DNA from: an uncultured virus (IMG/VR IMGVR_UViG_2700989568_000007)
Taxonomy: Duplodnaviria; Heunggongvirae; Uroviricota; Caudoviricetes
Strand: one strand, 5' to 3'
Virus record (IMG/VR): IMGVR_UViG_2700989568_000007
DNA: 20,000 nt
The position numbers and the translations under genes are program-made. Positions 1-20,000 of this stretch are shown here, piece after piece (position 1 is the stretch's first letter; each line of letters begins with the position of its first letter). Below the pieces are notes generated by a model. It had not been told where the DNA came from and ran no database searches. It saw only the letters and a list, made by a program, of their open reading frames with translations.

Positions 1-2843
1 GTGCGCCAACCGGTGGCGACGGCACCGCCCACATTTCGACCTCAGTCGAGTTCGTGAACGGCGTAATGATGGGGCTTGGAGCAGCTGGTGGCGTGATGAT
101 GAAAGCAGATGCAAACGCATCGGCGATTACCACACTCCAGAACACAGTAACGCAGCAAGGTAAAGATATTACCTCGTCCAGTAGCGCAATCACGAGTCTC
201 CAGAATGGACTGGTAGCAGCGAACAGCAACATCGACAAGAAAGCTGACGCAACGGCGCTTCAGTCACTCCAGAACACGGTAACACAGCAAGGTAAGGATA
301 TTTCCACGCAGAGCGGTAATGTCACCAACCTGCAGAACAGCCTGAGTGCCACGAATACCGGACTTGCCAATCTGGTTGCGGACAGCGACGCGTCGAAAAA
401 AATCATTGGAAACCTTCTGACCAACTCATCGTTTGAGCGAGGTCTGGAAGGTTTCAGCGGCGGCGCGTCATTTATAAAGGTTATTGATGCTCAGTCGCCA
501 AATTCGGGAAGTAAGATCCTGTCATGTGGGGCCGGTACGGGGACAGTCTCCCAAAGCATCGCAGTGACGAAAGATCGCACCTACAAAATCGGCGTGTTTG
601 CTCGCTGTCAGTCTGGCTCCGTTGTCGACAATCAGAGCAATAACAAACTGCGTATCGGCAACTCTGTCTTACTCGCTGACTTTCAGTTTAAGCCTGCTGA
701 TTTGCCGACTGATTCCACATGGAAGGAGATTGCTGGAAAATGGAAGGCTACGGTTACAGGCAAAGTTGATGTTTCCATCAACTCATCCCTGTCATCGGGA
801 ACTCAGTATTTCGATGATTTTTACTTCATCGATATCACTGACATAGTGAACATCGACGCGGCGAGCAATGCGGTTGCTAGTCTGACTTCGCGAGTTACCA
901 GTGCGGAAGGTACTGTTTCCAGTCACACCGGGAGTATCACGAATCTGAGCAATAGCCTTAATTCGTTGAATAACACGGTTTCTGGTAAGGCTGATGCTTC
1001 GGCACTTCAGTCACTGCAGAACACGGTTACGCAGCAAGGCAAAGACTTGTCTTCTGCGAGTGGCAGTGTCACTGAACTGAAGAGTAGCCTGAATACGCTG
1101 AAGGTCCAGAGTAACCCGTGGATCGACGGTACTTTCGAAACCTATGACAACAATCAGCAGTTAGGCGGCAGCACTGCGGTTGTTACGACGGACTTTAGCT
1201 ACTCCGGCAGCAAATGTCTGAAGGTTACTCGCCCGGCCAATACCAGCGGGAATGCCGACAAAAGCATCGGCTCTTATTCTGTGGTACGCCAGAGCGCGAA
1301 ATATCGCGTTGAGTTTTGGGCTATGATGCCAGCAAGTGAAGCCCCGCCGTCTGGCTGGTCTGTGGTCGTTGGTCTGCACTCCATCAACAAAGATGGCGGG
1401 AATGACTGGCAGGGCATTACGTTCAACGAGGCTGGTCTTGGCGGTCGCGACCAGTGGGTTAAGTTTACTGGTGTAGTGAAAGTGAGTCCGAGCGTTACCC
1501 GTAGCCATGTATGGATTTCTACTCGTGGTCAGAGTGGCTCCAACACACCTGGATACGCGGTGTACATTGATGATTTCGTCATTACCGATATCACTGATGC
1601 TGCGGATGCACAGGCTACGGCGGATGCAAACGCAACAGCAATCTCATCGTTGCAGACGAAGGTCAGCGATATCGATGGGAAAGTGACTGCCCAAACGTCG
1701 CAACTGTCTTCCATGCAGTCGAAGGTAGACGCGTCTTCTTCGAAAGTGGATCAGCTGTCTAAGACCATTTCGGACAGTCAGAGCACTCAGGCATCGTTGA
1801 ATACCAGCTTGCAGTCGCAAATTGACGCGCAGGCATCGGCAAACATCAAAAACCAGACGGAGTTGAATAACGCCACCACCTCGCTGGCGGCAATTAAGTC
1901 AACTCAGCAGACCCAGGCCACAACGATAAGCGCACTGTCTCAGCAGCAGACGAATTTGACAGCTCAGGTAGGAGGCCAGTCAGCCGAGCTTCAGGAGCTG
2001 AAGAAAACGGTTGTCGAAAACGGCAACGTTAACAGTACCTGGATGGTCAAAATGGAAACCAACAGCAATGGTAAAAAATATGCTGCTGGTATTGCTTTAG
2101 GTATCGATGGCAAAAATTTGCAGAGCCAGTTTCTGGTTCAGGCTGATCGCTTCGGCTTAATCAACACCTCTAACGGGAATACGACTACACCTTTCGTTAT
2201 CGAAAATGGCGTTGCCTACATGAATGCCGCTGTGATTAAGGATGGCTCCATCACCAATGCAAAAATTGGCGGTGAAATCCGATCTGACAATTTCGTTAAC
2301 GGTTCAAATGGCTGGAGAATTGGAAAAGACGGTAGTTCACAGTTCAACAACGTAGTTATTCGTGGTGAAGTTCACGCAAATACTGGTGTGCTTAATAACG
2401 TGACTATTAACGAGAACTGCACTGTGCTTGGCACTGTTCAGGCCAATAAAATTGTTGGTGACGTTGTGACAATGACCGACCGTGTTGTTAAAAACTGGCC
2501 AGCTTCCGGGAATACCTCATCCGGCACGCGCTACCTGATTGCAACGATTGACGGTATGCCCTTTGAACGGCGTATGGTGTTCAATGGTTCCGTTGTGATT
2601 GTTCAGTCATGGCGTCAAAACGTAACAATCCGCGTTGATGAAACGACCGTTTGGACTTTTGACTCTGGAAACGATGGTAAGGACTTTGAAACATCAATCT
2701 TCTCAATCCGTATCCCGGCGTCAAACTTCGGTCAACGTCACCAGATTACCATTCAGTGGCCGAACCGTGGCGATAGCGGTCAGTTCCGGTTTACAGGGGT
2801 TGTCTCGATGTACAGAACTACTGGCTCCATCTCTCTGGCTTAA
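1..2843 (+). CDS. Phage host-specificity / central tail fibre protein (J-like, DUF1983-type C-terminal region), 5'-truncated by the window edge
   Basis: The frame is open from nt 3 (APTGGDGTAHISTSVEFV...), so the true start lies upstream. It has Ser/Thr/Gln-rich coiled-coil repeats, two carbohydrate-binding-like domains (NLLTNSSFE..YFDDF; NPWIDGTFE..VYIDDF), and the KYAAGIALG...QSQFLVQADRF...PFVIENG...IKDGSITNAKIG segment typical of lambdoid J/DUF1983 proteins. Confidence 0.85.
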   Translation, partial: APTGGDGTAHISTSVEFVNGVMMGLGAAGGVMMKADANASAITTLQNTVTQQGKDITSSSSAITSLQNGLVAANSNIDKKADATALQSLQNTVTQQGKDISTQSGNVTNLQNSLSATNTGLANLVADSDASKKIIGNLLTNSSFERGLEGFSGGASFIKVIDAQSPNSGSKILSCGAGTGTVSQSIAVTKDRTYKIGVFARCQSGSVVDNQSNNKLRIGNSVLLADFQFKPADLPTDSTWKEIAGKWKATVTGKVDVSINSSLSSGTQYFDDFYFIDITDIVNIDAASNAVASLTSRVTSAEGTVSSHTGSITNLSNSLNSLNNTVSGKADASALQSLQNTVTQQGKDLSSASGSVTELKSSLNTLKVQSNPWIDGTFETYDNNQQLGGSTAVVTTDFSYSGSKCLKVTRPANTSGNADKSIGSYSVVRQSAKYRVEFWAMMPASEAPPSGWSVVVGLHSINKDGGNDWQGITFNEAGLGGRDQWVKFTGVVKVSPSVTRSHVWISTRGQSGSNTPGYAVYIDDFVITDITDAADAQATADANATAISSLQTKVSDIDGKVTAQTSQLSSMQSKVDASSSKVDQLSKTISDSQSTQASLNTSLQSQIDAQASANIKNQTELNNATTSLAAIKSTQQTQATTISALSQQQTNLTAQVGGQSAELQELKKTVVENGNVNSTWMVKMETNSNGKKYAAGIALGIDGKNLQSQFLVQADRFGLINTSNGNTTTPFVIENGVAYMNAAVIKDGSITNAKIGGEIRSDNFVNGSNGWRIGKDGSSQFNNVVIRGEVHANTGVLNNVTINENCTVLGTVQANKIVGDVVTMTDRVVKNWPASGNTSSGTRYLIATIDGMPFERRMVFNGSVVIVQSWRQNVTIRVDETTVWTFDSGNDGKDFETSIFSIRIPASNFGQRHQITIQWPNRGDSGQFRFTGVVSMYRTTGSISLA

Positions 2844-14693: not shown

Positions 14694-14842
14694 TTCCATA
14701 CATCATATTGACTTTTTCTGGAGGCGTCGCCCTTGGCTTCATCATCTGTCATGACTTGATCAAGCAGGAACTGAAGACCAAAACACTACGTATCGGTAAG
14801 CGGGTATATCGCGTCGTTCACGAGACAGGGGTATCAAAATGA
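14690..14842 (+). CDS. Small membrane protein (50 aa)
   Basis: MIPYIILTFSGGVALGFIICHDLIKQELKTKTLRIGKRVYRVVHETGVSK, with an AGGAG RBS and ATGA overlaps at both ends; too short for the ORF track. Confidence 0.7.
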   Translation: MIPYIILTFSGGVALGFIICHDLIKQELKTKTLRIGKRVYRVVHETGVSK

Positions 14843-15138
14843 GCAATCTAACCTCCTTAGACTGGTGGGTAGGCTTGTACTTTGTGGCCTCTGGTGTCGC
14901 AGTAGCTTTCACGGTTGGCCAGTCTCTTGTAAAGCTACTGCTTTTAAGATTCGCCAATCGCAAGCGTATCGATGACACGCTTTGGTGCCTTGGATCTCTA
15001 CTTGAACAGCGTTACGGCGAGCTGAAGGAAGGTGCAACCCTTTGCATAAAGGCAAAACGTTTCACGGCCACAATCCAACGGACGCAGGATGAGAAGCCAG
15101 TACTGATCAAAAAAGGAGCAAGCGAACGCATGAAATAA
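14839..15138 (+). CDS. Hypothetical membrane protein
   Basis: 99 aa with an N-terminal hydrophobic helix; coupled to the upstream small ORF. Confidence 0.65.
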   Translation: MSNLTSLDWWVGLYFVASGVAVAFTVGQSLVKLLLLRFANRKRIDDTLWCLGSLLEQRYGELKEGATLCIKAKRFTATIQRTQDEKPVLIKKGASERMK

Positions 15139-15142
15139 TAGG

Positions 15143-15156
15143 TAAGTGTTTACTTA
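15143..15156. promoter_or_regulatory. Palindromic operator-like site at the head of the RNA cluster
   Basis: TAAGTGTTTACTTA followed by TGATATAAAT (extended -10-like), a 10-mer also seen downstream of the 4442 site. Confidence 0.55.
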
Positions 15157-15184
15157 TTAAGTTGATATAAATATGATTGACTTA

Positions 15185-15303
15185 TTTTCGTTGAGACGCG
15201 ACTGTTTGAACGTTTAAAGATAACTGCAAACGACAATCAGTATCTGGCAGTAGCCTAAAAAGCCAAACACCAGCGAGGTCAGTTTCCAGCCTCGTCACCG
15301 AAA
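15185..15303 (+). ncRNA. Candidate tmRNA-like RNA carrying an SsrA-type tag frame (ANDNQYLAVA*)
   Basis: ATAACT-GCA AAC GAC AAT CAG TAT CTG GCA GTA GCC TAA (tag 15226-15258), with no in-frame start codon. The flanks can pair (TTTCG/CGAAA, TGTTTG/CAAACA). No canonical tRNA-like domain found. Confidence 0.5.
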
Positions 15304-15338
15304 TGGGACACACTAAGCGAGTGTGATTGCAAAACGCA

Positions 15339-15858
15339 GGTAGGGCATCTGGTTAACCAGTGCCCTTACCGATGAGGTAACAGAATGGGCGGTTGGGTTT
15401 TATGTCCAACACATCCCGGCTCCCAAAGGCCCGACCGTCTATCCTGTTACGTCATTTCTGTTACTTATGTCGTTTAGTTTTGGGTTAAAAATGGCGACGT
15501 AACCCGGCTGGTTAGGTGAGCCAGCACGCAACGTTGAGACCACTGGTTTTTGCATCACAGAGGCAGAGCCGGCAGACATGTAGGGCCAAGTACATTAATC
15601 CGTCCCAGTGGTCTCAACGTTGTGGTCACGGATTCATTATCCTTCTGGTTATAGCCATTGTTGTCACTGCCCCGTGCCCACAACGATTAAATGATTCCAT
15701 ACATCTAATTAGATCTGAATGAAAACTCTCCTCAGCCCTCGGAGAGTATTTGAAGATCTTGGCTTGTAAGCGTTTGGTGAACACGTAAAGCACAAGTGGC
15801 AGGAAACGGTAGGACTGCTGCGAACGACACCGGTGAATCGACAGCGGCTGACGGTGTC
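15339..15858 (+). ncRNA. Cluster of structured non-coding RNA hairpins
   Basis: Stems at 15339-15370, 15372-15455, 15527-15624, 15618-15685, 15725-15747 and 15826-15858. Several deviations are G-U compatible on the + strand, and there is no credible ORF. Confidence 0.55.
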
Positions 15859-15865
15859 AACCTTA

Positions 15866-15940
15866 GATGGTGTAGCTCAGTGGTAGAGCGGTTGACTGTT
15901 AATCAGCTGGTCGGTGGTTCGAATCCCCCCACCATCGCCA
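15866..15940 (+). tRNA. tRNA-Asn (GTT)
   Basis: Acceptor stem GATGGTG/CACCATC, D arm GCTC..GAGC, anticodon loop CTGTTAA, TTCGAAT T-loop, encoded CCA; one T-stem mismatch. Confidence 0.93.
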
Positions 15941-16084
15941 CAACGGTAAGGGTATTTGGACGACAGCAAGGAAGGCGCGCTCTTTGGCTGTTCGCGACGG
16001 ATCTGATTCCCTGAATTCCCTTACCGTTGTGATGAATTGCAGCTCGTTGAAGCAACCAGAAGATAAGCATCTGGCGTCACAACG
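15939..16084 (+). ncRNA. Overlapping hairpin pair between the tRNAs
   Basis: CACAACGGTAAGGG (15939-15952) / CCCTTACCGTTGTG (16018-16031), and CGTTGTGATG (16025-16034) / CGTCACAACG (16075-16084). Confidence 0.5.
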
Positions 16085-16087
16085 AAC

Positions 16088-16174
16088 GGAGGATAGAGGG
16101 CATGGCGCCCAAGCGGTCTTGAAAACCGTCCCATTGCGAAAGCGATGATGGTTCGATTCCATTATCCTCCGCCA
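16088..16174 (+). tRNA. tRNA-Ser (TGA)
   Basis: Acceptor stem GGAGGAT/ATCCTCC, G discriminator + CCA, anticodon loop CTTGAAA, long variable arm, TTCGATT T-loop. Confidence 0.9.
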
Positions 16175-16175
16175 A

Positions 16176-16256
16176 CACAGCGTTGAGCGGTTTGGTTTTG
16201 TTTTTCTTATCGAAAAGACTCCGCCTGTCACCATGGCCAGACCGCTCAACGCTGTG
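16176..16256 (+). ncRNA. 20-bp hairpin directly after tRNA-Ser
   Basis: CACAGCGTTGAGCGGTTTGG / CCAGACCGCTCAACGCTGTG (one G-U pair). Confidence 0.5.
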
Positions 16257-16330
16257 ATAGACATTACGGCAGACGTTCTTTAACCATAGCTTCTAGCATC
16301 TTAGCAACACTTTTTTCAGCGCAAAATCCA

Positions 16331-16447: not shown

Positions 16448-17224
16448 ATGGGAAACAAACGTAAACAGGCGCGACGTGCAGCTCGCCAGGCGCTTAAGTC
16501 AAAATCGCGTATCCTTGGCTACGAGATCGACACTATTATCGTAGACGAGGTGGCCTCCGCCGCCCCTGCTCTGCCCCCAAAACCGAAGCGTGATACTTCC
16601 CCCATAGAGGCACGCAACGAAGCCCAGGCCCACTATCTTATCTCTCTTGATAGCAAAGCACTGACCTTCGCCACTGGCGAAGCCGGCTGCGGTAAAACCT
16701 TCCTGGCGACGGCAGTCGCGGCACAGCGATTACTCGATAAGGAAGTAGAGCGAATTATCGTTACGCGCCCCGTACTGCAGGCAGAGGAGGATTTGGGCTT
16801 CCTGCCTGGCGATATGGCCGAGAAGTTCGCTCCGTTCTTTCGTCCCGTCTACGATGTGCTGCAGAAGCGCCTGGGCGCTTCATTTCTCGAATACTGCCTA
16901 AAGCCTGAGGTGGCTAAAGTCGAGATCGCCCCCTTCGCATACATGCGCGGTCGCACGTTCGAAAACGCTGTGGTGATCCTCGATGAGGCCCAGAACGTGA
17001 CGGCGTCACAAATGAAGATGTTCCTGACTCGGATGGGTGAGAACGTAACGGTCATCGTGAATGGTGATGTAACCCAATGCGATCTGCCGGGTAATGTTAA
17101 ATCTGGTCTTGAGGACGCCCTGCAGCGGTTCCGGCCATCTCGCCAGGTAGGGCTCATTGAGTTCACGGCCGAAGATTGCGTGCGCTCTGAGCTGTGCAAA
17201 GTGGCGCTTCAAGCCTATCTGTAA
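16448..17224 (+). CDS. phoH: PhoH-family ATPase
   Basis: GEAGCGKT Walker A, LGFLPGD, YMRGRTF, ILDEAQN, FLTRMGE and GDVTQCD motifs; AAAGGA RBS before ATG 16448. Confidence 0.95.
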   Translation: MGNKRKQARRAARQALKSKSRILGYEIDTIIVDEVASAAPALPPKPKRDTSPIEARNEAQAHYLISLDSKALTFATGEAGCGKTFLATAVAAQRLLDKEVERIIVTRPVLQAEEDLGFLPGDMAEKFAPFFRPVYDVLQKRLGASFLEYCLKPEVAKVEIAPFAYMRGRTFENAVVILDEAQNVTASQMKMFLTRMGENVTVIVNGDVTQCDLPGNVKSGLEDALQRFRPSRQVGLIEFTAEDCVRSELCKVALQAYL

Positions 17225-19743: not shown

Positions 19744-20000
19744 GTGCGCCGGGAGACCGGTAGAGATCAAGGGGTGAAAGTCCCCGACCATTGAAGGACC
19801 AGCAATCCACAAGGTCCCCGAGTCATGCGTTGCATACCGCGAGGTATGGGGCGAAGCGTTGACAGGGGTGTTGACAGGCCAGCCATTGAGCCACGAAATG
19901 TATATTAAATTACCGGGTGCCGACGTTGTACTGTTAACGGAAGGCAACATCATAGGGTGCGATACTGCGAGTGCCACATGGACCCGGCGGGGTCTGAGAC
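19744..20000 (+). mobile_element. Group II intron, 5' end (domain I), continuing beyond the window
   Basis: Begins with GTGCG, with an abrupt AT-to-GC shift. Domain I-like elements: GGGGTGAAAGTCCCC, CCCCGAGTCATGCG, GAAGCGTTGACAGGGG and GCCATTGAGCCACGAAA. A candidate EBS1 loop is complementary to the upstream exon. Confidence 0.8.

Follow-up and report, generated by a model that had tools for sequence, protein, structure and literature searches.

How does a reading frame of ten codons that has no start codon, and that reads like the tag of transfer-messenger RNA (tmRNA), come to stand in a phage genome without a transfer RNA (tRNA)-like domain beside it? The question is raised by a stretch of 20,000 nucleotides (nt), hereafter the window, from an uncultured member of the Caudoviricetes (IMG/VR record IMGVR_UViG_2700989568_000007), in which the frame GCA AAC GAC AAT CAG TAT CTG GCA GTA GCC TAA (ANDNQYLAVA followed by a stop) occupies positions 15226-15258 of the (+) strand, directly 3′ of ATAACT. 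An in-frame TGA lies 15 codons 5′ of the GCA, with no ATG, GTG, or TTG between the two, and the start-less frame described in the initial annotation of this DNA is thereby confirmed in the sequence. The window is best read as encoding an RNA of ~155 nt with two modules: the 5′ third would be an antisense arm directed at host tmRNA, and the 3′ two-thirds a relative of the tag-coding part of tmRNA. The parts of this RNA are as follows:

15184..15340, + strand: whole conserved RNA (antisense 5′ domain, leader, tag, helix, and two pseudoknots), with predicted ends
15185..15193, + strand: antisense segment A (TTTTCGTTG), complementary to host tmRNA nt 95-103, in tag codons 2-5 (…C GAC GAA AA…)
15198..15207, + strand: antisense segment B (GCGACTGTTT), complementary to tmRNA nt 82-91, comprising the upstream resume element AAAUAGUC and the GC of the resume codon
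15214..15225, + strand: A/U-rich leader ending in ATAACT and abutting the resume codon (A[TC]AA[ACG]T or similar across the family)
15226..15258, + strand: start-less tag frame of ten codons plus stop, ANDNQYLAVA
15244..15273, + strand: hairpin resembling helix 5, CTGG 15244-15247 with CCAG 15270-15273, enclosing the last tag codons and the stop
15274..15308, + strand: pseudoknot a; stem 1 CGAGG 15274-15278 with CCTCG 15290-15294, stem 2 TTCCA (in the loop) 15284-15288 with TGGGA 15304-15308
15309..15337, + strand: pseudoknot b; stem 1 CACAC 15309-15313 with GTGTG 15321-15325, stem 2 GCG 15317-15319 with CGC 15335-15337

Conservation, coding signature, and fold of the RNA

The RNA belongs to a family that is widespread in phages and plasmids of enterobacteria. 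With window positions 15140-15480 as a blastn query, the element matched 772 plasmid records (SSU5-like elements of Klebsiella, Escherichia, Enterobacter, Salmonella, and others) and 406 phage records, and bases 15181-15280 match strictly lytic phages that are unrelated to SSU5. When the Felix O1 copy served as the query, 602 phage records from at least five unrelated lineages were recovered. Family members are present in the Ounavirinae (Felixounavirus, Mooglevirus, and Erwinia Kolesnikvirus), the Ackermannviridae (Vi01 and Kuttervirus, together with Klebsiella phages of ~157 kilobases (kb)), the N4-like Schitoviridae (IME11 and FSL SP-076), and Klebsiella siphophages of 46-60 kb (DP01, KP13-27, and Sashavirus). 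The family is almost never annotated; the matched positions carry either no feature or a hypothetical protein. Conservation across lineages runs from (G)TTTTCG to the 3′ strand of the stem of the second pseudoknot, and from these limits the RNA is taken to be ~155-190 nt long (~15184-15340 in the window). A covariance model of the part from the leader to the pseudoknots (model R1) matches the window at 15214-15341 with 105 bits (E 1.2e-17) and scores 105-141 bits in 13 of 13 phage loci. Because the frame and its surrounding structure are kept in hundreds of unrelated phages, the feature lies far beyond chance.

The frame itself is conserved in the manner of a coding sequence. A search for the tag-end pattern found more than 119 IMG/VR loci, and 123 loci were then analysed; the 10-codon frame is present in all 123 and is terminated by a stop codon in 122. 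As a control for circularity, 120 loci were chosen by the pseudoknot region alone, one of which was too short, and each of the 119 usable loci contains exactly one 10-codon GCN…stop frame. The 39 distinct tags share the consensus AN[DE]xx[YFV]L[AM][VA]A and have C-termini of two classes, …LAVA and …LMAA. Among these 39 tags there is synonymous variation at codons 1, 2, 3, and 6: codon 1 is GCA or GCT, codon 2 is AAC or AAT, Asp is encoded by GAC or GAT, and Val by GTT, GTC, GTA, or GTG. Codon 10 is variously GCC (17 tags), GCT (12), GCG (9), or GCA (1), and the stop is TAA (34), TAG (2), or TGA (2), with TTA in one copy; the peptide ANDNTFLAVA occurs in two nucleotide versions that have three synonymous differences. 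Stop codons interrupt the two alternative frames in 37 and 22 of the 39 tags, and the ratio of nonsynonymous to synonymous variation (pN/pS) is 0.56 in the tag frame versus 1.67 and 0.71 in the others. Most lineages have a stop 5-9 codons 5′ of the GCA and no start codons in between, and the overlapping +1 frame begins with ATG, GTG, CTG, or CAG depending on lineage. Translation from a conventional start, use of the +1 frame, and read-through from an upstream open reading frame (ORF) were each considered and rejected, given the lack of start codons, the varying +1 start, and the stops that interrupt the other frames. On sequence grounds, the pattern is the signature of a tmRNA tag template, which is coding sequence that is read without initiation.

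The fold 3′ of the tag was assessed in a MAFFT alignment of 61 representatives (<94% identity; 59 distinct rows), in which 22 pairs in five helices were tested. Standard pairs occupy 93.6% of cells (79.1% in shuffled alignments), 172 cells are changed on both sides (49 in shuffles), and the covariation score is 0.393 (0.150 in shuffles); for each of these measures, none of 500 shuffles was as high. Sliding the partner columns by one to three positions leaves 27-45% of cells paired, compared with 93.6% in register, and 13 of the 22 pairs show compensatory changes. The 4-bp helix at the end of the tag is paired in 100% of cells, its fourth pair being G-C in 44 sequences and A-U in 15. In pseudoknot a, changes on both sides occur in three of five pairs (helix 2) and three of four pairs (helix 3); for the window lineage, stem 2 of this pseudoknot was read by eye, as MAFFT displaces these rows by one column. 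Stem 2 of pseudoknot b, which joins loop to tail, covaries strongly in other lineages (GGCCC/GGGC, GCCCAC/GTGGGC, GCCCTGA/TCAGGGC, GACGGGAG/CTCCCGTC, and GATCC/GGAT), but it is unsupported in the SSU5-like copies because its three pairs there (GCG/CGC) are invariant. Thus, a short helix and two H-type pseudoknots 3′ of the tag are supported by covariation. We rejected the possibility that the second pseudoknot is an aminoacylatable 3′ end of the kind found in plant viruses: no CCA or ACCA comes after it, its third pair is not G:U, and the bases that follow vary among lineages.

In 30 of 30 host tmRNA loci, model R1 aligns to the part that begins with the tag leader (17.5-26.1 bits, E 0.0085-0.36), and this weak but consistent alignment suggests that the phage RNA descends from the tag-coding part of tmRNA. 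The coding-type conservation, the covarying helix and pseudoknots, and the R1 matches to host tmRNA all agree with the initial annotation in its view of the locus as a stand-alone phage version of the mRNA-like domain of tmRNA. Its further statement that the frame sits in a loop with pairing flanks is right only in part, in that the last tag codons and the stop lie within the covarying 4-bp helix (15244-15247/15270-15273). In the alignment of homologues, a check that it put forward, the frame is kept with synonymous changes and the flanks covary; codons 4 and 5 are free to vary.

Complementarity to host tmRNA and the missing tRNA-like domain

The conserved 5′ domain was compared in 19 lineage representatives with the ssrA tmRNA of E. 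coli (363 nt), and is antisense to host tmRNA nt ~60-107, a region that includes part of pseudoknot 1, the resume leader, and tag codons 1-6. Its invariant 5′ end, (UA)GUUUUCGU(C), is the exact complement of host tag codons 3-6 (GAC GAA AAC UAC), and in 16 of the 19 representatives the longest perfect complement (7-12 nt) lies between the phage 5′ end and tmRNA nt 96-108. Further along the arm, GCGACU and U-rich bases complement the host resume leader and the first two bases of the resume codon (AAAAUAGUC followed by GC); almost every family member has GCGAC here. It is the pairing segments of the arm that are conserved; the linker that faces host A92-C95 is variable in both length and sequence. 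In lineages with long arms, complementarity extends into the 3′ strand of host pseudoknot 1, and the distance from the last predicted pair to the phage GCA is ~11 nt, equal to that between pseudoknot 1 and the resume codon in E. coli (our own count).

Using RNAduplex with the 5′ domain against the whole tmRNA, the best duplex falls at nt ~54-129 in 17 of 19 representatives, with energies of -23 to -49 kcal/mol; in 8 of the 19, none of 300 dinucleotide shuffles was as good (z -6.4 for IME11 and -6.2 for locus L139). The window arm pairs with tmRNA nt 60-125 at -23.4 kcal/mol, compared with -16.4 +/- 2.8 for shuffles (15 of 1000 as good), and none of the 66-nt segments of tmRNA scanned with this arm gave stronger pairing than nt 60-125. 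For eight other short-armed representatives, 0-25 of 1000 shuffles were as good against the same region. The arm is predicted to pair with host tmRNA at -23.0 to -41.5 kcal/mol and with the leader and tag of its own RNA at -10.6 to -19.1 kcal/mol, the host being the stronger partner in each of the 12 representatives compared; the arm therefore follows the sequence of the host and not that of its own RNA, and we rejected pairing with the RNA's own tag as its function. GAAAAC, which would pair with the arm, is present in none of the 39 phage tags. The host target is kept in most of the Enterobacterales sampled (GACGAAAAC in the tag of 84 of 120 species, by our own count), and in most of seven representatives tested the predicted pairing is 7-20 kcal/mol weaker with tmRNAs of the Yersinia or Sodalis type. 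Judged as an antisense RNA, the arm thus has complementarity that exceeds chance, is conserved, and is site-specific; this is strong in the DP01-like, N4-like, Ackermannviridae, and Erwinia-phage copies and modest in the window lineage. The suggestion in the initial annotation that the RNA might act in trans with host tmRNA gains sequence support from this match between the 5′ domain and the resume and tag region.

By contrast with the tag part, none of the hallmarks of the tRNA-like part of tmRNA were detected. ARAGORN with default settings reported neither a tmRNA nor a tRNA-like domain in the window, Rfam at the gathering score reported no tmRNA, and RF00023 had no window match even at E up to 10. 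Relaxed Rfam searches of the window gave weak matches to the tag region only (alpha_tmRNA, 16.4 bits with a cut-off of 50; beta_tmRNA, 12.4 bits; tmRNA_permuted, 11.3 bits with a cut-off of 47), and 33.1 bits in IME11 against a cut-off of 47. A scan for T-arms (T-loop and stem) recovered only tRNA-Asn and tRNA-Ser near the window element, and ARAGORN (default, -ps, and -ps80), relaxed Rfam, and the T-arm scan identified no credible tRNA-like domain nearby. Relative to a one-piece tmRNA (RF00023), the window has the start-less frame running from a resume codon after an A/U-rich element to a stop, as well as the downstream pseudoknots and stop-codon hairpin; there is no tRNA-like domain with G3:U70, T-arm, and 3′ CCA, and no upstream pseudoknot 1 was identified. 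Neither does an acceptor piece lie upstream of the coding piece, as it does in permuted tmRNA (RF01849, RF01850, RF01851, and RF04321). Because it has no tRNA-like domain, the RNA fails the defining test for a tmRNA, and on this point the searches bear out what had been noticed from the letters alone.

Two genome announcements, in the portions available to us, report an 'ssrA' called by ARAGORN in Moogle and Felix O1. With default settings ARAGORN calls a 'permuted tmRNA' only in Moogle (locus L127, 920-1668; tag ANDNVFLAVA), where it combines a stray T-arm and part of tRNA-Lys with the real tag. Permuted calls for Felix O1, wV8, and the window require the 80% threshold, where they stand among many obvious false calls and reuse pieces of neighbouring tRNAs. 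The published statements are thus explained by ARAGORN joining tRNA pieces to a real tag, and as far as the tRNA-like domain is concerned the 'tmRNA' calls in Felix O1-like genomes are artefacts.

There is no tRNA-like partner common to all lineages. Ackermannviridae carry, directly 3′ of the tag RNA, an unannotated and conserved cloverleaf-like RNA of 125 nt (locus L203, 360-486 (-); locus L124, ~1800-1925 (+)). Its acceptor stem has 6 bp, and it has U8, A9, U73, a T-arm, and an encoded CCA; a long arm replaces the D-arm, a tetraloop hairpin is found where the anticodon loop would be, and there is no G3:U70. This RNA matches 199 phage records, all with names and sizes consistent with Ackermannviridae, and was for that reason rejected as a universal partner. 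In Felix O1 (locus L001, ~2697-2785 (+)) and wV8 (locus L123, ~25942-26033 (+)), the position directly 3′ of the tag RNA is held by an unannotated tRNA-like gene that, as read by eye, has no D-arm, a UCU anticodon-like loop, a long extra arm, an acceptor stem with G3:U70, and ACCA. Its anticodon stem is preserved through a compensatory change in another Felix-type locus (L053), and an ordinary tRNA-Arg(UCU) is present at its position in JohannRWettstein and Moogle. A tRNA-shaped gene in the N4-like phage IME11 (locus L125, 2297-2372 (+)) is given a two-base anticodon by ARAGORN, and its anticodon arm fails to align to the tRNA model.

Proposed docking on host tmRNA and the competing explanations

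The family, the coding-type conservation of its frame, its structure, and its complementarity to host tmRNA are the observations from which we propose a mechanism. The antisense arm would dock the phage RNA on host tmRNA by pairing to either side of the resume codon (for the window, at host nt ~82-91 and ~95-103), with the host leader and resume codon locked in the duplex. The single-stranded leader and resume codon of the phage RNA would then emerge beside host pseudoknot 1, and the rescued ribosome would load these in place of the host's. The host would provide SmpB and the alanine-charged tRNA-like domain and the phage would provide the tag, such that stalled proteins would receive (A)ANDNQYLAVA in place of the host (A)ANDENYALAA. 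We hold this reading, in which the phage RNA covers the tag template of host tmRNA by annealing to it and offers its own template instead, as the leading one but tentatively, at somewhat less than an even chance. The docking model explains together the missing tRNA-like domain, the coding signature, and the host-tracking arm. We infer that the pairing takes place in the cell, that the tag is translated, and that a LAVA or LMAA end in place of ALAA may alter proteolysis. Given what we take to be the mode of recognition by ClpX and SspB, the AANDxxY part of the tag should still bind SspB, and the last three residues differ from LAA. Two reports, in the sections available, describe both the blocking of trans-translation in vitro by antisense oligonucleotides to tmRNA and the continued activity of tmRNA with a replaced tag template (PMC3384345; PMC7038980).

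Several points weigh against the docking model. Pairing at tmRNA nt 69-80 would break host pseudoknot 1. We know of no precedent for a ribosome loading a resume codon from a second RNA. The complementarity of the window lineage is modest (9 + 10 bp), and with the A-rich leader included and the full-length tmRNA as target, the best site for the window lies elsewhere and is non-significant (58 of 300 shuffles as good), as is also the case for locus L012. The z-scores are non-independent because the lineages are related, and the nearest host tmRNAs that were compared were those of Raoultella, Enterobacter, Citrobacter, and E. coli. As for the tag, the pN/pS of 0.56 is just moderately low because codons 4 and 5 are free, the sequence is constrained in part by the hairpin as well, and in locus L117 TTA replaces the stop. 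RNA-library contigs (X1, X3, and X8) show no transcript ends, which contigs cannot do.

The antisense complementarity would be equally expected if the RNA were purely an inhibitor or decoy, with the arm blocking host tagging or rescue, the 3′ part stabilising the RNA or titrating tmRNA-binding proteins, and the tag remaining untranslated. Synthetic anti-tmRNA oligonucleotides are described, in the parts of the reports available, as sufficient to suppress trans-translation in vitro, and mycobacteriophage DS6A has an RNA consisting of the tRNA-like domain only that is thought, according to the portion of the source available, to inhibit host tmRNA (PMC4131195). Such an inhibitor would have no use for a frame of fixed length in 119 of 119 loci, for synonymous third positions, four codons for the last Ala, and three interchangeable stops, or for the retained resume leader, all of which it leaves unexplained; we regard it as roughly a one-in-five proposition, and as the nearest competitor to docking. 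A different possibility is that the element is the coding piece of a split phage tmRNA, whose alanine-accepting piece is encoded elsewhere in the phage and joined by base pairing. Two-piece tmRNAs do exist in bacteria, as far as the available part of the literature describes them, and both the Ackermannviridae cloverleaf-like RNA, with its T-arm and CCA, and the D-arm-less gene of Felix O1 and wV8, with its G3:U70 and ACCA, are positioned directly 3′ of the tag RNA as such a piece might be. However, no partner is shared between lineages, the former is confined to its family and lacks G3:U70, and the latter is replaced by an ordinary tRNA-Arg in JohannRWettstein and Moogle. No extra T-arm occurs near the window element, and the sole default ARAGORN tmRNA call (in Moogle) stitches together pieces of unrelated tRNAs. 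A split tmRNA also leaves unexplained why the arm matches host tmRNA better than the phage's own RNA, and we consider it unlikely.

Least probable of the named readings, and in our estimation very improbable, is that the element is an ordinary feature of its surroundings: an attachment site or the decayed remains of ssrA, a conventional micro-ORF, or a spacer involved in processing of the tRNA operon. It does occur within tRNA clusters that are rich in long spacer hairpins, and some lineages have an ATG in the overlapping +1 frame; in others, however, this frame begins with GTG, CTG, or CAG, and it is closed in 37 of the 39 tags. The tag differs from that of the host beyond the first 8-9 bases, so it is no recent ssrA fragment. 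Strictly lytic phages keep the element intact, with its structure covarying and with its own promoter-like site, and on this basis an ssrA remnant or attachment site, the alternative that the initial annotation had named as refuting its own proposal, was rejected. Such probability as remains belongs to none of these readings.

Genomic setting, known systems, and significance

The features flanking the tag RNA in the window are:

15149..15177, + strand: sigma-70-like promoter, TTTACT, 17 nt, TATGAT (putative; 9/12 matches)
15866-15940, + strand: tRNA-Asn (ARAGORN)
16088-16174, + strand: tRNA-Ser (ARAGORN)

The element thus has the position ascribed to it at the outset, after a promoter-like site and before tRNA genes. 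TTTACT-17-TATGAT is the sole sigma-70-like site in 14900-16300, a count of 1 compared with 1.6 expected, and taken alone is no better than chance. The predicted promoter would place the RNA 5′ end at ~15184-15186. In every lineage read by eye a -10-like box lies 7-8 nt 5′ of the conserved (G)TTTTCG, and Felix-type phages have a consensus promoter, TTGACA-17-TATAGT (also read by eye). No terminator-like site was found in the scan of 14900-16300. In Felixounavirus, Mooglevirus, Kolesnikvirus, and DP01-like phages the element is within or beside a tRNA cluster and on the tRNA strand; no tRNA was found in the 3-kb locus examined in Vi01. Over positions 14800-16300 the window shares 100% identity with plasmids, NZ_CP055511 among them, and 99.7% identity with Klebsiella phage vB_KpnS_p4727, and it is, to judge from these matches, an SSU5-like phage-plasmid of Klebsiella.

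The non-coding sequence from the tag RNA to the tRNAs (15338-15865 and 15940-16085) contains long hairpin modules, as read by eye, whose stems repeat the words CACAACG…CGTTGTG and GGTAAGGG…CCCTTACC; these words are seen also in loci L002, L125, and L129. DP01-like and N4-like phages have variable inserts within the helices of such modules, some with T-arm-like motifs (loci L007 and L129). The tRNA operon may be processed at these modules. The stretch is present in contigs of RNA libraries from three studies (X1, X3, and X8), with a single contig spanning it in X1. Library X8 has a contig at 15055-15226 with a depth of ~1027, a 35-base contig at 15197-15231 with a depth of 820, and a contig from 15205 on with a depth of 64; the step in depth is near 15226-15231, at the resume codon. 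Elsewhere in the window, the start of a group II intron (19777-20000 (+); Rfam RF02005, domains D1-D4, 176.9 bits, E 4e-52) runs past the window end, and a sub-threshold match to the Yersinia small RNA Ysr251 (17026-17217 (-), in an ORF region; 48.8 bits versus a gathering score of 100, E 7e-11) probably reflects a shared backbone of the SSU5/pMT1 type.

Of the systems already known, bacterial tmRNA (SsrA, RF00023) is the closest to the phage RNA in its tag part. Both have an A/U-rich leader with U at -5 and A at -4 (in E. coli ssrA, AATAGTC precedes the GCA), a GCA resume codon, and a 10-codon AND…Y…A tag without a start, followed by a stop in a hairpin and then H-type pseudoknots; the first eight bases of the phage tag (GCAAACGA) are identical to those of enterobacterial ssrA. 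Unlike tmRNA, the phage RNA has no acceptor stem, T-arm, CCA, helix 2, or pseudoknot 1, has two pseudoknots only, ends its tag in LAVA or LMAA rather than ALAA, and is phage-encoded with an anti-tmRNA 5′ arm and its own promoter-like site. Permuted two-piece tmRNA (Alpha- and Betaproteobacteria, cyanobacteria, and some cyanophages; RF01849-51 and RF04321) resembles what is proposed here in that two base-paired RNAs would assemble and the coding piece holds the tag and pseudoknots. The known pieces, however, derive from one gene in one genome, and their coding piece has a 5′ acceptor strand, whereas the partner of the phage RNA would be a complete host tmRNA contacted at the tag region and not at the acceptor or helix 2. 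The mini-tmRNA of DS6A is also a phage-borne tmRNA fragment, presumed in the portion of the source available to interfere with host trans-translation, but it is a mirror image: DS6A keeps the tRNA-like end without a tag, and the present RNA keeps the tag end together with an antisense arm. Synthetic anti-ssrA oligonucleotides, in the available descriptions of their use in cell-free translation, likewise pair with tmRNA and stop host tagging; they are man-made DNA with no replacement template, and were compared by description, not by sequence.

Expert surveys, in the parts available, name mycobacteriophages, Bacillus phage G, and DS6A as the only phage sources of tmRNA, and the portion of the supplement searched for a 2025 tmRNA database paper contains no phage names. 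Beyond the two announcements of an ARAGORN 'ssrA' in Moogle and Felix O1, our literature search found no description of a tag-only, tmRNA-directed phage RNA. tmRNA has been catalogued as one-piece, permuted, intron-bearing, or reduced to the tRNA-like domain; a tag-only form was not previously described.

Family members include model and therapeutic phages. It is plausible, though we place it slightly on the doubtful side, that at least five unrelated lineages of enterobacterial phages share an RNA that forms with the host a 'heterologous two-piece tmRNA', placing a phage tag (…YLAVA or …LMAA) on every rescued protein. If so, the handling of rescued proteins by ClpXP, SspB, and other proteases would be altered during infection or lysogeny. 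Docking on host tmRNA would then be the first natural reprogramming of the tmRNA template of one organism by another, a mechanism new in itself and a new phage route to host proteolysis and ribosome rescue. It would also provide a function for an unannotated conserved gene of Felix O1, Vi01-like, N4-like, and Klebsiella phages, and of the SSU5-like phage-plasmids of clinical Enterobacteriaceae.

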